11,545 bases of DNA, taken from a virus. Its lineage: Duplodnaviria; Heunggongvirae; Uroviricota; Caudoviricetes. Each line of letters begins with the position of its first letter. The first letter of the stretch is position 1. The DNA lies in the IMG/VR virus record IMGVR_UViG_2713896785_000013, one strand, 5' to 3'. Both the position numbers and the translations under genes were made by a program. This document shows, piece by piece, positions 914 to 6,345 of this stretch. Under the pieces are notes generated by a model. It saw only the letters and a program-made list of their open reading frames with translations, made no database searches and was not told the origin of the DNA.

Positions 914-929
914 GGGAAAATAAGTGTAG

Positions 930-1003
930 CGCGTTGTACTGGAGTCGAACCAGTGACCGATTGCTTAGAAGGCAATTGCTCTGTCCTGCTGAGCTAACAA
1001 CGC
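930..1003 (-). tRNA. tRNA-Arg (anticodon UCU), phage-type rare-codon tRNA; CCA not encoded
   Basis: Manual cloverleaf: acceptor GCGTTGT/ACAACGC, D-arm GCTC...GAGC, anticodon stem ATTGC/GCAAT with loop CTTCTAA, T-arm ACTGG-TTCGACT-CCAGT. Confidence 0.8.
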
Positions 1004-1016
1004 AGAATACCGATAA

Positions 1017-1092
1017 TGGACCACCACCGGGGACTCGAACCTCGCACACTCAACTTAAAGGGTTGACGCTCTTTCCTGATGGCTAGTGGCGG
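1017..1092 (-). tRNA. tRNA-like element, probably degenerate (apparent anticodon UUU with C at position 33, weak D-stem)
   Basis: Acceptor stem CCGCCAC/GTGGTGG, anticodon stem TCAAC/GTTGA with loop CCTTTAA, T-loop TTCGAGT with one T-stem mismatch, 3' CCA present. D-stem forms only two pairs. Confidence 0.35.
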
Positions 1093-1193: not shown

Positions 1194-1240
1194 TCTCCTC
1201 CACCAGCGCATTCACCATGTCTATCCGAGATAAGTGGCAC

Positions 1241-1263
1241 AAAAAAACCCGCTTGTGGGCGGG
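1241..1263 (-). terminator. Candidate tR'-like intrinsic terminator just downstream of Q
   Basis: Hairpin CCCGC-CCACAA-GCGGG followed on the minus strand by TTTTTTT (A7 at 1241-1247 on plus). A weaker T-run also follows on the plus strand. Confidence 0.5.
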
Positions 1264-1311
1264 TTTTGTTTGCTTTTGCCATCACGTACAAAATCGGCAA
1301 AATATCAGATT

Positions 1312-1347
1312 TGCATGAAATATATGCCTTTCAATCTACTTTTGCAA
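1312..1347 (-). promoter_or_regulatory. Candidate late promoter (pR'-like) overlapping the 3' end of Q
   Basis: On the minus strand TTGCAA (1347-1342), 17-nt spacer, TATATT (1324-1319). Position immediately after Q and about 50-70 nt before the hairpin fits the lambdoid pR'/qut/tR' layout. Confidence 0.3.
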
Positions 1348-2020
1348 CACTTTGCTTTGAAAATGCCGCCTTTTGTTTTGAACGTGTTCTCATTACAAAT
1401 AATAAAGCCTCACTATCCAGTCGGTGAAAAATGTGTTTCATTGCAACCCAGTGACGAGTAAATGTTTTGGACCAGTTTTTAGTTGTCACTCCCGCCAGTA
1501 ATGCCAGCTCCTGATATTCATAACCTTCCCCACCAAAAAGTTCTGCTTTTACTGCCTGCGCCGCCAGCCAGATTAATTTTTTCAGGCGTTCCTGCGTTTT
1601 CCCAGCAATTTTTCTGGTACCGGATTGAGTATTAAATTCATTCCACGCCCACTGTGTTATCGCGATCTGATATTCCCAACAAATACTCCCGCTGTAACAC
1701 CACAACAACCAGGCTTTATGATGTTCTTCAAGAGACAGAACAGCCCGCCGCCACGATGATGTCGAAAACTCAACCGGACTGACCAGAGGAATTGACGTCA
1801 CCTTCGCCAGCGATTGCTTTCCCGGGATTGGTGGATTATCCCGCGTTATCATTTTTCCAGTCACTTCATCGCGGTACCGGATTTTTTTTCGCCTGTAACG
1901 CCCTGTATCGAACATGGCATTCTCCTGCCAGGCTTCAAGCTGACCTTTTGTTGCCCCACTCAAATCAGCGGTGGCGATAATGAGCTGCTCACGCACAAAC
2001 TGTAAATAGTGGTTATTCAT
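1331..2020 (-). CDS. Late antitermination protein Q (large Qin/QuuQ-type)
   Basis: About 229 aa from an ATG that overlaps the rusA stop (ATGA). Sits directly downstream of rusA and upstream of the tRNAs and promoter/terminator pair; size matches the roughly 250-aa Q class. Confidence 0.7.
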   Translation of the reverse strand: MNNHYLQFVREQLIIATADLSGATKGQLEAWQENAMFDTGRYRRKKIRYRDEVTGKMITRDNPPIPGKQSLAKVTSIPLVSPVEFSTSSWRRAVLSLEEHHKAWLLWCYSGSICWEYQIAITQWAWNEFNTQSGTRKIAGKTQERLKKLIWLAAQAVKAELFGGEGYEYQELALLAGVTTKNWSKTFTRHWVAMKHIFHRLDSEALLFVMRTRSKQKAAFSKQSVAKVD

Positions 2021-2382
2021 GCGCACTCCAGTTCTGTGATTTTTATCCCCAGCCGCCCACCAGGAACGAGCTGACCGCGCACAATATTGATTTCATCAAA
2101 CTGCTCGTCGTCTATGAGAAGTCCGGCATGCGTCAGCACATCCAGTGGTGCTTTCAGGATATTGTCCAGGTCACGACGGCGCTTATCCGGTGGCTCTGCA
2201 ATAATCTTTATCACCAGCCTTCCGGACAGGTTTAATTTCAGCCGCTGCTGGCGAACAATTAGCGCCACATCACGGCGATAACGCTTTCCGGCTTCCGAGA
2301 TGAAATACGTATTGCCATGACGTCGCCAGTAGGTATTCACCGTCGGCGGGTAAGGCAAAACAAATTCTATCCGTTCAGTCAT
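2017..2382 (-). CDS. rusA: Holliday junction resolvase RusA
   Basis: 121-aa product MTERIEFVLPYPPTVNTYWRR...PPDKRRRDLDNILKAPLDVLTHAGLLIDDEQ... carries the RusA catalytic Asp motif region and the expected size and position upstream of Q. Confidence 0.9.
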   Translation of the reverse strand: MTERIEFVLPYPPTVNTYWRRHGNTYFISEAGKRYRRDVALIVRQQRLKLNLSGRLVIKIIAEPPDKRRRDLDNILKAPLDVLTHAGLLIDDEQFDEINIVRGQLVPGGRLGIKITELECA

Positions 2383-2724
2383 TCATGCTTTCCACTTCAG
2401 GACACCCGAATTTCTCGCGTGCATTAAAAAACGAATCAGCAACAACAGCTGGCTGCCGTGTTTTTCTTCAAAATCTTTTACCCCGGCGTGCAGTTCGTTA
2501 TGACATTTACGGCACAGCGGAATAACAAACAAATCATCAGCCTTTGTTCCCATCCCTCCCAGTCCATGACCAATGATGTGATGCGGATCATCTGCCTGAT
2601 TACCGCACGTCATGCATTTCTGCGTTTTTACCCAGCGCGTGTATACAGGCATCTCTTCCCGTTGTGGTTTCTGGCGCTGGAGATACTGAGCCGGTGACTC
2701 CGGATCAACGGCAATGCTGACCAC
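2383..2724 (-). CDS. YbcO-like (DUF1364-type) zinc-binding nin-region protein, putative nuclease
   Basis: Cys/His pattern C-x2-C ... HH ... C-x2-CH in the product, placed immediately upstream of rusA as ybcO is in DLP12. Start is GTG at 2724 (SD AGGAAAAG) or an internal ATG at 2652. Confidence 0.55.
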   Translation of the reverse strand: MVSIAVDPESPAQYLQRQKPQREEMPVYTRWVKTQKCMTCGNQADDPHHIIGHGLGGMGTKADDLFVIPLCRKCHNELHAGVKDFEEKHGSQLLLLIRFLMHARNSGVLKWKA

Positions 2725-3439
2725 CGTCTTTTCCTGTGGCGGGTTTTGCTGGTGGGCGTGAGGCAGCGGCGCAAGATTTTTTTGTGCGCTGCTTCAGTAT
2801 GATGGTGGCGGTCTGCTCTCCCGGTACGATGTCGCTTTCACGGTACATTGAGCGGATTTTTTCCGCACGCAACCCCAGCGAACGACGTAATACCGCTTCC
2901 GGTTGCGCGTCCGCCACCTGATTGCGGACCGCCCACCAGGATAATTCAGCCAGAGATAATTCACGCTCCTGCGTACCGCTTATTGCGTGACCGATGACGT
3001 CAATCATCCATGCTGACAGGTTTTGATGAGCAAGTTGCTCGAGTGATTCGGATGTCTGGTCACGCAGCTGGTTGTCGCAGTGCCAGCACAACACCATTGC
3101 GCCGGTACCATAACGGTGAATAACGGTTTCACTGTGATGATAGTCACCATGAGGCCACTGGCAGGATTTGACATGACGCAACAGCCAGTCAGACAGTGCA
3201 CCAGCGCCACCAACAGCACGAATCACACGCTCATTGCTGAAAAACGGCAGTAATGATTTATCCTCCGCCAGCGGCTGGCGAACGGCAGGGACGATGCCGG
3301 ACGGCAGACCGCGCATGCTTTTCGGTTCCGGCTCCACAAGCACTCGAGGGTTATGGAATACCTGCATGGATTCACGGCCTGGTTTAAGGACCTCCAACCC
3401 AAGTTCCGGTACCGGAACAGGTCGAAGTAATACCCGCAC
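2705..3439 (-). CDS. DUF968-like (YdfU-like) phage protein
   Basis: Long ORF with a His/Cys-rich core (WPHGDYHH...LCWHCDNQL). GTG start at 3439 preceded by GGAGG, which overlaps the upstream stop; an internal ATG at 3367 is an alternative start. Confidence 0.5.
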   Translation of the reverse strand: MRVLLRPVPVPELGLEVLKPGRESMQVFHNPRVLVEPEPKSMRGLPSGIVPAVRQPLAEDKSLLPFFSNERVIRAVGGAGALSDWLLRHVKSCQWPHGDYHHSETVIHRYGTGAMVLCWHCDNQLRDQTSESLEQLAHQNLSAWMIDVIGHAISGTQERELSLAELSWWAVRNQVADAQPEAVLRRSLGLRAEKIRSMYRESDIVPGEQTATIILKQRTKKSCAAASRPPAKPATGKDGGQHCR

Positions 3440-3440
3440 G

Positions 3441-3719
3441 TTACCTCCAGATGCGTTGCTGGAATGTGCGGGACGGACGCGGTGGGCGCTCGGAGTACGG
3501 CAGCCTGACGTAGATTATCCAGTGACGATAATCGAGGCTGAGGGCTTTCCTAAACTCATACCCACGTCTGCGGTAGTTCTGAATCAGCCATTCGGCCTGT
3601 TCTTCAGTGCATGGGGCGTGCCGGAACCAGTCAGATTTGAATGCATGAGAACGCCGCCCGTGCCTGCTGGCAAAGACGGCTGAATTATCAGAATTGTGTA
3701 GTCTGGAATTTTGCGCCAT
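3441..3719 (-). CDS. Hypothetical phage protein (92 aa), possibly the N-terminal part of a YdfU-like protein
   Basis: ATG at 3719 with SD GGAGA at 6-nt spacing. Abuts the DUF968-like ORF in a different frame. Confidence 0.45.
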   Translation of the reverse strand: MAQNSRLHNSDNSAVFASRHGRRSHAFKSDWFRHAPCTEEQAEWLIQNYRRRGYEFRKALSLDYRHWIIYVRLPYSERPPRPSRTFQQRIWR

Positions 3720-3788
3720 CGGCTTTCTCCGGTGGCACAGTGTTACTCAACAGGGGTTCAGCCCTGCGCTGAATTGTAGATGAATTCA

Positions 3789-4049
3789 CTAATCTTCAAA
3801 AGCAGAAAAACCAGCCTTAATCCCAGCTTCTTTCAGAGACGGCAACGATGTGACAAATTCATTTGCACGCAAAATAAAACCATCCGTCACAAGCCCATCC
3901 ACAAAATGAATTAACGCAGCTCCACTCTTCCTTTGTTGAGACTGTAAACATTTAATACGGCAGTGGCTGACAATAGCGCCCTTCTCAACGCGCACAGTAT
4001 AGAGGCCATCTTCACTAAAAATTTCACGTAATTCTTCGATTCTCATCAA
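3789..4049 (-). CDS. Hypothetical small protein (86 aa), Rem-like by position only
   Basis: ATG with GGAAGGA upstream. Lies between hok and the DUF968-like gene, where rem (83 aa) lies in Qin. No sequence-level recognition. Confidence 0.45.
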   Translation of the reverse strand: MMRIEELREIFSEDGLYTVRVEKGAIVSHCRIKCLQSQQRKSGAALIHFVDGLVTDGFILRANEFVTSLPSLKEAGIKAGFSAFED

Positions 4050-4171
4050 CAGAATCCTTCCAGATAAATAGCACTCCCCTGTTCGGGGTCCATCCCTCTT
4101 CTCCCTGCGCGCTACTTAAGTATTTTTGATTCTATTCCGGCGCCGTCCGGAACTTCAAACGCGTTGAAAAT

Positions 4172-4197
4172 AAAAACAAAAACCCGCCGAAGCGGGT
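4172..4197 (-). terminator. Rho-independent terminator at the 3' end of the hok transcript
   Basis: Minus strand ACCCGC-TTCG-GCGGGT hairpin followed by TTTTTGTTTTTATTTT. Confidence 0.6.
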
Positions 4198-4266
4198 TAA
4201 GTGCGGGTGCGTTGAGGATGCCTGACACATCAGAGGTGGCGAGGGATTTCTCCCCCGCCTGGTCTC

Positions 4267-4392
4267 TTACTCCTCAGGTTCGTAAGCTGTGAAGACNNNN
4301 NNNNNNNNNNNNNNNNNNNNNNNNNNNNNNNNNNNNNNNNNNNNNNAACAGATGACGATCAGGGCGATTAACATCGCCTTTTGCTGCTTCAT
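4267..4392 (-). CDS. hokD: Hok/Gef-family membrane toxin (HokD/RelF-like), interrupted by an assembly gap
   Basis: N-terminus MKQQKAMLIALIVIC and C-terminus VFTAYEPEE match recalled HokD. SD AAGGAG upstream of the ATG at 4392. The middle of the gene is the 50-N gap, so length and frame across it are unreliable. An in-frame upstream ATG at 4449 is in the mok position. Confidence 0.8.
   Translation of the reverse strand: MKQQKAMLIALIVICXXXXXXXXXXXXXXXXXVFTAYEPEE
4297..4346. other. Assembly gap (50 N) inside hok
   Basis: Run of exactly 50 n. Confidence 0.95.
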
Positions 4393-4584
4393 AGCCTGCT
4401 TCTCCTTGACCTTTCGGTCCGTAAGAGGCAATCTATATGTGACGAGCATATAGGGGCCTCACTTCGATTTATAGTCGGGTGGGGCTTTTATCTATCTGCC
4501 GTTGGTGTTCATGCCCGAGGCAGATAGCCTCAAGCACCCGCAGCAATCCTACTTAACTCTGCCGTTACAGCAAACCGTTTTCGC

Positions 4585-4608
4585 CCGATATGGGAATTCC
4601 CATATCGG
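4585..4608. repeat. Perfect 24-bp palindrome CCGATATGGGAATTCCCATATCGG
   Basis: Exact reverse-complement symmetry read directly. Lies between the binding-protein gene stop (4728) and the hok leader. Confidence 0.6.
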
Positions 4609-4727
4609 AATGAATTCAGTTCACCTGGCGAGGCTTAGCGTACAATTTTTTCCGTTTTGTGAGCTGCCCCTACATGCCGCTGGCGCGGCATCCGGAAAAA
4701 GAATCCACGTCCTGAAGGACGAGGATG

Positions 4728-5486
4728 TCAAGTGCCTTTCCTGGTCCAGCCATATTTTTTGAATGCAGGCGCCGCTTCATCGGTTTGTAGCCATTCTGCA
4801 AATCGACGGGTTTCATCATTTGCATCCTGACGTACTGTAATGTTCATATCACGCCATATCACGTAGTCTGGCGCTATTTCCACGACATCACCAATTTCTG
4901 GATTACTGGCTGCCCAGTCAGCCCAGGTTATCCAGACATCTGCTCCAGGCTGATTCTCAAGAGCCTTACGTGCAGTTCCGCTATTGGGCGCATATAAAAT
5001 AATATTTTTTCGGATTGCGGCGACAGTTTCTATATTCCCTTTACGTCCGGCAATATCTTCCCAGACGCCAGTGCCTGATGTATTACTGGTACCACCACCA
5101 TCATTAACAATTACGCCAATCCCAGGTCTGGTCAGGTCGTCAATACTCCGGATATTTTTAGGATTACCTTTCTTTACCAGTAAAATACTTTTTCGCAGAT
5201 AAAGAGGCTGAATATCTTTTTCACTGAAGCTGTCTTTATGGTCCCGAATGATAGCCAGAGCAGATTGTTCTGATGCGCCAAACAAGATATCTGCATTTTT
5301 TTTGGCATCTTCATTCCATTTGTTCTGTGGGCCGTAATGAACGTTCACTATAATACCTGTTTTTTCGGCATAAAGTTTGGCTGCATCAAGCAAGGCTGTA
5401 TGCGGGCCACCAGGACCATACAGATTGATATCAGCATAAGCAGCAGAAGACAGGAATATTAAAAAACCTGCCATTATGTTCCTCAT
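4728..5486 (-). CDS. Secreted periplasmic substrate-binding protein, ModA-like (molybdate/tungstate-type PBP fold), orphan
   Basis: Strong SD AAGGAG and signal peptide MRNIMAGFLIFLSSAAYA. GIIVNVHYGPQ...ADILFGASEQS and the C-terminal FKKYGWTRK resemble recalled ModA segments. Gene and upstream region are visibly AT-rich; no permease or ATPase gene nearby. Confidence 0.65.
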   Translation of the reverse strand: MRNIMAGFLIFLSSAAYADINLYGPGGPHTALLDAAKLYAEKTGIIVNVHYGPQNKWNEDAKKNADILFGASEQSALAIIRDHKDSFSEKDIQPLYLRKSILLVKKGNPKNIRSIDDLTRPGIGVIVNDGGGTSNTSGTGVWEDIAGRKGNIETVAAIRKNIILYAPNSGTARKALENQPGADVWITWADWAASNPEIGDVVEIAPDYVIWRDMNITVRQDANDETRRFAEWLQTDEAAPAFKKYGWTRKGT

Positions 5487-5650
5487 AAAAAACTCCTTTT
5501 ATTGGTTATCATGAAATAAAGTTATAAACACTACAAATAATATATATTACATCCAGATAAACTTATCCGACTTTACCTCGTGCATAGCTTGTTATTTAAA
5601 GTCAACAAAATAAGGAAAATTATACGCATATTGAAGAGTATAAACCTTAC

Positions 5651-5678
5651 ATGTTGATTACATTTTTGTAATCAACAT
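5651..5678. repeat. 28-bp palindrome ATGTTGATTACA-TTTT-TGTAATCAACAT in the AT-rich region upstream of the binding-protein gene
   Basis: Perfect 12-bp inverted arms with a 4-nt spacer, about 165 nt upstream of the gene start. Confidence 0.5.
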
Positions 5679-5904
5679 CCTGTTTGGAATAGCCAGCCTT
5701 TAATGGATAACTATTTCTGACAATGCAATGAGTATAATCAAGTCCATCTTCCACTGAGAATTAGAGGCGGCATGCTTTTTCCGGCTCTTGCCGGATATCC
5801 GTAATTGTCCATAATCTGCAGATTTATACCTTCTGCATGACCTGTCAGCGAAAATTTGTCCGGTGTTTCTACGGGAATGACATCAAAAGTTACACGCACT
5901 CGCG

Positions 5905-6216
5905 TTACCGTGTAGACCTACTTTCCTGCACTTGCAAGATCACAGTGGTGTAACCGTAACAGGAATTTATTCTCTGGACCGGCAGTAAATCCCTGAGTGG
6001 CGTGGTTCCCATATCAATTTCCCGCCAGGCAGCCTCCATTGCCAGCGTACAGGCTGGAGCCATGACCTGCCCTTTAAATCTGGCCCGACCATCCCACCGG
6101 ACGTGTTCTTCTCCCCTGAACTTAGGTACAGTCATCTCCAGTGGCACAAAAGTGTCAGCGCCATAATTTTTGACCGTTATCGCGCTACGGATATTTTGTT
6201 GACTGGTGAAAATCAC
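5905..6216 (-). CDS. Hypothetical ORF, possibly a gene remnant
   Basis: ORF-track frame only; GTG start, no convincing RBS and no recognisable family. Confidence 0.25.
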   Translation of the reverse strand: MIFTSQQNIRSAITVKNYGADTFVPLEMTVPKFRGEEHVRWDGRARFKGQVMAPACTLAMEAAWREIDMGTTPLRDLLPVQRINSCYGYTTVILQVQESRSTR

Positions 6217-6345
6217 CCCGCAGAATCAGGCTTATTCCCTTAACCCGGGCTTTCATCCTGACCGCCGCCTCACTACGACCAATCAGACTGCCGATGCATT
6301 TTACCTTCATTGTTAGTATCATGATTTCAGGCCTGCACCATCCGC

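Follow-up and report, generated by a model that had tools for sequence, protein, structure and literature searches.

The 11,545-nt viral stretch analysed here (the window; IMG/VR record IMGVR_UViG_2713896785_000013, Caudoviricetes) carries on its minus strand an open reading frame (ORF) that, judged by its sequence, is paa (alias adfO; z2053 of O157:H7 EDL933 O-island 57, OI-57). An earlier note, made from the letters of the window alone, had called the product an orphan ModA-like periplasmic binding protein and had by implication treated the gene as new. Paa/AdfO is a known prophage-borne adherence or colonisation factor of Escherichia coli strains that make Shiga toxin (STEC) and pig-pathogenic E. 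coli, named and studied since 1999-2003, and its host element is a Qin-like lambdoid prophage of the PPompW/OI-57 type of STEC, enterohaemorrhagic (EHEC) and enteropathogenic (EPEC) E. coli. Although it goes by the name of an adhesin, the protein shares its fold, signal peptide and ligand loop with soluble periplasmic anion-binding proteins, and we lean towards the reading that Paa acts as a periplasmic anion receptor that affects adherence indirectly. The coding sequence (CDS) and its export signal are placed as follows.

4728 to 5486, minus strand: paa/adfO CDS, an intact ORF encoding a 252-residue precursor of 27.7 kDa (mature protein 234 residues, 25.8 kDa).
5433 to 5486, minus strand: Sec-type signal peptide, residues 1-18 (MRNIMAGFLIFLSSAAYA), with cleavage predicted after AYA from sequence, hydropathy and the alignment with PEB3.

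A megablast search of positions 4500-6300 against 5426 complete E. coli genomes returned 100% identity in many STEC/EHEC chromosomes, and the RefSeq features on the identical DNA are 'paa: AcfC family adhesin Paa' (WP_001449026.1), 'fimbrial protein' and 'hypothetical protein'. E. coli 2013C-3264 is 100% identical to the window across 1194-11545, a masked 50-nt run at 4297-4346 excepted, and records of the PPompW prophage (LC5678xx), in which the gene is labelled 'porcine attaching-effacing associated protein Paa/adherence factor AdfO', match the DNA at 99.8-99.9%. The paa CDS is present on prophages or plasmids in 611 of the 5426 genomes (582 chromosomal and 36 plasmid places), with at least 99% identity in 564 records. 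A review of the O157 O-islands likewise assigns adfO to z2053 in OI-57 and reports that ckf (z2054), a phage cell-killing factor, always accompanies it (PMC8565820). The gene is a routine virulence marker in the typing of STEC, EPEC and enterotoxigenic E. coli (ETEC), and its OI-57/PPompW context is published; the discovery value of the locus is none beyond confirming that the earlier note had recognised a genuine moron.

Comparison at the protein level places Paa, which bears a Sec signal, among the class-II substrate-binding proteins, in the clade that it forms with AcfC and PEB3. The Pfam profile SBP_bac_11 aligns with Paa residues 20-247 over profile positions 1-226 of 227 (E = 5.5e-34). 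A phmmer search across the Protein Data Bank found its best match in Campylobacter jejuni PEB3 (3fir, 3fjg, 2hxw, 3fj7; E = 1.2e-81, residues 11-248, 52.5% identity) and also matched Vibrio cholerae AcfC (4jb7; E = 3.5e-81, residues 16-248, 51% identity), both alignments spanning the full mature Paa. The N-terminus, MRNIMAGFLIFLSSAAYA followed by DINLYGPGGPH, contains a single basic residue, a hydrophobic core and an A-x-A cleavage motif, and the lipobox cysteine is absent. As the mature PEB3 crystal chains (2hxw, 3fj7) start at the residue aligned to Paa residue 19, cleavage would fall after residue 18.

The residues that may contact the ligand are also conserved. Paa T136/S137, within an SNTSGTG loop identical to that of PEB3, align with PEB3 T138/S139 (PEB3 numbering checked against the K135E crystal sequence), and Paa 168-173 reads SGTARK, an SG[ST]ARK segment conserved with PEB3. 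PEB3 T138/S139, together with the S171-Q180 segment, reportedly form the ligand site of that protein (Min et al. 2009), and its SG[ST]ARK segment presumably turns helical upon phosphate binding. Full-length similarity, identity to a named protein, the mature N-terminus D-[IV]-N-L-Y-G-P-G-G-P-H, the ligand residues and orphan status are thus all found in Paa at the level of sequence, and they point to an exported soluble class-II binding-protein fold with an intact oxyanion loop and no dedicated transporter. A single-sequence AlphaFold2 model of Paa was unusable (mean predicted local distance difference test score 41, predicted template modelling score 0.31). Residues 213-217 (window 4842-4856, minus strand) form a bacterial N-glycosylation sequon, D-M-N-I-T, placed elsewhere than the glycosylated DFNVS of PEB3. 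In E. coli, which to our knowledge has no pgl system, this sequon probably plays no part.

These results bear out the earlier description of a secreted substrate-binding protein with a strong ribosome-binding site (AAGGAG, 6 nt from the ATG), while of the term 'ModA-like' only the shared Pfam family stands. With the modA models Paa reaches 18.3 bits where TIGR01256 demands 62.5 and 17.7 where NF002920 demands 470, and membership of Sbp/CysP is rejected on the same grounds (NF008022, 22.6 against 288; TIGR00971, 21.5 against 155.5; NF008106, 19 against 308 bits). The NCBIfam sulfate-binding models align short stretches only, inside Paa residues 93-146, and the sulfate-binding structures 1sbp, 6ddn and 5um2 are weak matches (E 1e-4 to 1e-3) over Paa 95-212, a stretch that includes the anion-binding loop. 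The true family is AcfC/PEB3/Paa, with PEB3 and AcfC at about 1e-81, and not ModA.

The orphan status asserted from the window extends beyond it. Among the ORFs of the window and the RefSeq features of the identical DNA there is no gene for an ATP-binding cassette (ABC) permease or ATPase, and neither modB nor modC adjoins paa in the window. ABC genes were likewise absent beside clade members at 10 other loci (E. coli, Salmonella, Sulfitobacter, Agrobacterium, Acinetobacter and Paraburkholderia). The plasmid copies of paa that were examined adjoin insertion sequence (IS) elements or IncF repA, never ABC genes; their proteins are 93% identical to Paa in porcine ETEC and 74-87% identical elsewhere, and the plasmid DNA homology runs over 4660-5672, a stretch that takes in paa together with roughly 186 nt of upstream and 68 nt of downstream sequence.

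Four distant plasmid homologues, from Sulfitobacter, Agrobacterium, Acinetobacter and Paraburkholderia (37-48% identity), are orphans as well. Genes for LysR regulators lie within about 3 kb of all four; TDT-family transporters, chloride-channel genes and UDG-family genes each accompany two of the four, and a CrcB fluoride-efflux gene accompanies one. Although this sample of neighbourhoods is small (4 loci), the occurrence of orphan homologues beside LysR regulators and anion transporters is a hint that the clade as a whole has a function linked to anions and independent of ABC importers. DUF305 occurs near the homologue in Agrobacterium and near paa in the E. coli plasmid pE105-3. We suggest, tentatively and with low confidence, that Paa and the entire AcfC/PEB3/Paa clade may be no adhesins but ABC-independent periplasmic oxyanion receptors that dock on a host-encoded chemoreceptor or secondary anion transporter. 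If this is true, a single phage or plasmid gene can re-tune the sensing of a gut niche.

For Paa itself, the receptor reading that we favour, with moderate confidence, would run as follows. Paa would be exported to the periplasm and would close there on a small gut metabolite that carries phosphate or sulfate. It would then pass the ligand, or information about it, to a partner encoded on the host chromosome, for example a chemoreceptor or a transporter; the adherence phenotype would thus be indirect, with Paa not serving as a surface adhesin. Both solved relatives of Paa behave as metabolite or sulfate receptors: PEB3 binds 3-phosphoglycerate (3-PG) and other phosphates and is seen as a transport protein (PMC12469816, PMC3417527), and AcfC, found in the periplasmic fraction, binds sulfated glycosaminoglycans and mucin and steers mucin chemotaxis (PMC5976639).

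Several points weigh against this reading. We know of no established ligand, localisation or partner of Paa itself, and the ligand-site role of the PEB3 residues with which its loop was aligned is taken from a reported finding on PEB3 (Min et al. 2009). The original characterisation (Batisson 2003) reportedly implicated Paa directly in early adhesion. An AcfB-type partner is absent beside paa in E. coli, and a scan for consensus promoters across 4400-6400 found 4 sites against 4.3 expected by chance and did not pick up the TATAAT at 5619-5624 in the putative paa promoter described below. The literature, finally, labels Paa/AdfO an adhesin or adherence factor (PMC8565820, PMC10562709).

That label, which RefSeq and the phage records share, would be literally correct if Paa, after Sec export, reached the surface or the medium (for example by type 2 secretion or by way of the outer membrane), bound sulfated host glycans or mucin and provided the first attachment before intimin-Tir. 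We regard such a genuine adhesin as a serious but doubtful possibility. Its fold marks Paa as a soluble periplasmic binding protein, and an anchor, a lipobox and an autotransporter domain are absent. According to reviews, paa/adfO mutants lose adherence and attaching-effacing lesions (PMC8565820; PMC10562709); the adfO mutant, however, not only adheres less to HeLa cells but also falls short in secreting other proteins, a sign that the effect may be indirect (PMC8565820). Enzyme-linked immunosorbent assays showed binding of recombinant AcfC to heparin, chondroitin sulfate and mucin, yet AcfC is periplasmic and deletion of acfC leaves adhesion unchanged (PMC5976639). For PEB3, too, the 'adhesin' label has been questioned, as the protein behaves as a 3-PG binding or transport protein (PMC12469816, PMC3417527). 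Deciding between adhesin and receptor would clarify how a one-gene prophage cargo aids gut colonisation by EHEC.

Two further explanations carry much less weight with us. Paa might serve a chromosomal ABC importer (ModBC, CysUWA or similar) as an additional binding protein and widen or compete for the substrate range of that importer. This idea corresponds to the interference with a host transporter that the earlier note had suggested, and it draws on the SBP_bac_11 family common to Paa and ModA, on the weak local similarity to Sbp/CysP and sulfate-binding structures at and around the anion-binding loop, and on PEB3 mutants that reportedly (Min 2009) lack the growth benefit from 3-PG (summarised in PMC12469816, PMC3417527). 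With scores far below the modA and Sbp cut-offs (18.3 against 62.5 and 22.6 against 288 bits) and no ABC genes beside any clade member examined, we consider it improbable. Least credible of all, and close to negligible in our estimate, is that Paa excludes phages or defends against superinfection, or that it is a functionless decaying relic. The gene is a moron in a prophage, adjoins a hok toxin gene and belongs to a phage family (PHROG 11834) with no assigned function; but no PADLOC defence model matches Paa at E <= 0.01, the ORF is intact, keeps an identity of 99% or more across about 564 genomes and is retained on plasmids with its upstream region, and purifying selection and regulated expression speak against a relic. 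The published phenotypes concern host colonisation. Of the lysogenic-conversion and exclusion functions that the earlier note had envisaged, exclusion therefore finds no backing, whereas lysogenic conversion agrees with the published adherence phenotypes (PMC8565820, PMC10562709) and with the induction of the EDL933 paa homologue (named acfC there) in bovine rumen and rectal contents (PMC8524897).

As a unit the gene is intact and self-contained: it brings its own ribosome-binding site, is followed directly by a terminator-like hairpin and has conserved AT-rich DNA upstream. The signals around the CDS are these.

5493 to 5498, minus strand: Shine-Dalgarno sequence AAGGAG, 6 nt 5' of the ATG, read from the sequence and kept in two plasmid copies (pE105-3 and L005).
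5487 to 5691, minus strand: AT-rich upstream region (205 nt, 26.3% GC) with a candidate promoter, from GC content and motifs.
5619 to 5624, minus strand: perfect TATAAT, a candidate -10 element with a poor -35.
5651 to 5678, minus strand: perfect 12+12 palindrome ATGTTGATTACA-n4-TGTAATCAACAT, about 27 nt upstream of the TATAAT.
4698 to 4721, minus strand: terminator-like hairpin CGTCCTTCAGGACG followed by a U-run, beginning 7 nt past the paa stop (minimum free energy -29.7 kcal/mol, z = -2.4).
4674 to 4691, minus strand: second hairpin, ATGCCGC-GCCA-GCGGCAT, downstream of the first.

The TATAAT and the core of the palindrome (ATTACAAAAATGTAAT) are conserved in three of the five aligned plasmid copies of paa, and both downstream hairpins are kept in pE105-3. 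The TATAAT region may function as a promoter, and its poor -35 suggests that this promoter is regulator-dependent; the palindrome at 5651-5678 is a candidate operator for such a regulator.

Together with a fimbrial gene remnant and the terminators, paa forms an insert in the prophage backbone. Its extent was read from MAFFT alignments with three paa-less relatives (the prophages of Dog168 and JNE12-007 and K-12 Qin) and was later confirmed; backbone homology stops at about 4583-4631 on the hokD side and restarts at about 6179 on the DUF1627 side. The insert and its surroundings comprise the following features.

4632 to 6178, minus strand: inserted cassette of about 1.5 kb (fimbrial remnant, paa and terminators), from the alignment, boundaries approximate.
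5647 to 6180, minus strand: remnant of a dead fimbrial minor-subunit gene, adjoining paa on its upstream side; both ends are lost, and there are deletions of 5 bp and 10 bp.
4237 to 4392, minus strand: hokD (ckf in the O157 literature), a type I toxin gene, from the RefSeq annotation of identical DNA, masked by N at 4297-4346.
6346 to 7080, minus strand: DUF1627 gene (Pfam E = 8.4e-93), with which the conserved genes of the replication-side flank end, kept in Dog168 and JNE12-007.

The slot between the DUF1627 gene and hokD varies in its cargo. Where the window has paa, K-12-type Qin has relBE in the order hokD-relE-relB, Dog168 has QueH and DUF977, and JNE12-007 has DUF4406 and hypotheticals, and the flanks are conserved in all three relatives despite the other cargo. 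The earlier placement of the gene in an AT-rich block between the replication module and hokD, at the position of relBE in Qin, is thus correct on both counts: GC content is 43.9% in the paa CDS and 26.3% in the spacer against 48.6% in the window. The local GC comparison that had been proposed as a check gives the same answer, GC content at third codon positions being 34.8% in paa against 44-65% in the neighbouring phage genes. Presence or absence among collinear prophages at a module boundary and a deviant base composition are accordingly the marks of a moron seen for paa.

As to where the cassette came from, RefSeq describes the fimbrial remnant as 'fimbrial protein, frameshifted; internal stop', and over 5688-6144 it shares 86% identity with an intact counterpart, a 195-aa fimbrial gene of a chaperone-usher operon on a plasmid (locus L003, 6963-7550). 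This remnant of a plasmid fimbrial gene beside paa suggests that the cassette derives from a virulence plasmid, and overall it looks as if a lambdoid phage captured a virulence cassette that a plasmid had carried. No target-site duplications or IS ends were found at the cassette borders; the search gave short matches present in two copies and one inverted pair of 13 nt, nothing else. That pair, a perfect inverted repeat (AGTCAACAAAATA / TATTTTGTTGACT) at 5600-5612 and 6192-6204, flanks the fimbrial remnant; one arm belongs to backbone DNA of the prophage, and its counterpart falls within the region upstream of paa. The repeat may have arisen by chance or may be left over from the recombination event by which the cassette entered. 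Between hokD and paa there is also a 24-bp perfect palindrome, CCGATATGGGAATTCCCATATCGG, at 4585-4608. It was considered as a junction scar and rejected, being backbone sequence common to other lambdoid prophages of E. coli.

Elsewhere in the window, the identical RefSeq record annotates pseudogenes at 2383-3439, at about 7568-8128 and at about 254-688 (all minus strand), namely a frameshifted DUF968/ydfU gene, a frameshifted and partial DnaT-like replication gene and a TerB-family gene with an internal stop. The prophage is probably defective. Downstream of Q, at 929-1092 (minus strand), lies a tRNA cluster, with ARAGORN calls for tRNA-Arg(tct) and tRNA-Lys(ttt); for this stretch the PPompW record annotates Arg, Lys and Met, and RefSeq 2013C-3264 only Arg and Ile. 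The left end of the window is 98.9% identical to 2013C-3264. Two 50-nt runs of N mask sequence, at 1144-1193 in the tRNA region and at 4297-4346 in hokD.

Set beside known systems, the locus does not differ from Paa/AdfO of E. coli, with which it shares the DNA, the neighbours (hokD/ckf, the fimbrial pseudogene and DUF1627) and the prophage type. The relBE genes of K-12 Qin and the other cargo of the slot (QueH, DUF4406, DUF977) occupy the same position, but their genes and functions are unrelated to paa. ModA, Sbp and CysP share with Paa the SBP_bac_11 family or clan and local similarity at and around the anion-binding loop; they differ in that Paa falls far under their family cut-offs, is partnered by neither modBC nor cysUWA and has about 60-80 residues fewer than Sbp/CysP.

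Paa is like PEB3 of C. jejuni in overall identity (52.5%), in the mature N-terminus (D-[IV]-NLYGPGGPH), in the SNTSGTG loop and the SG[ST]ARK segment, and in the absence of adjoining ABC genes. PEB3, whose ligands are 3-PG, phosphoenolpyruvate and phosphate, differs in being chromosomal and in being N-glycosylated at a DFNVS sequon that is absent from that position of Paa, and its K135 corresponds to T133 in Paa. AcfC of V. cholerae, encoded on Vibrio pathogenicity island 1 (VPI-1) within the ToxT regulon, is about 51% identical to Paa and shares its fold family; it too is an orphan, borne on a mobile virulence island, and a colonisation factor. The acfC gene, however, lies downstream of the chemoreceptor gene acfB, a neighbour that paa does not have, and AcfC has a mucin-chemotaxis phenotype with no adhesion phenotype, whereas Paa mutants are reported to be adherence-defective.

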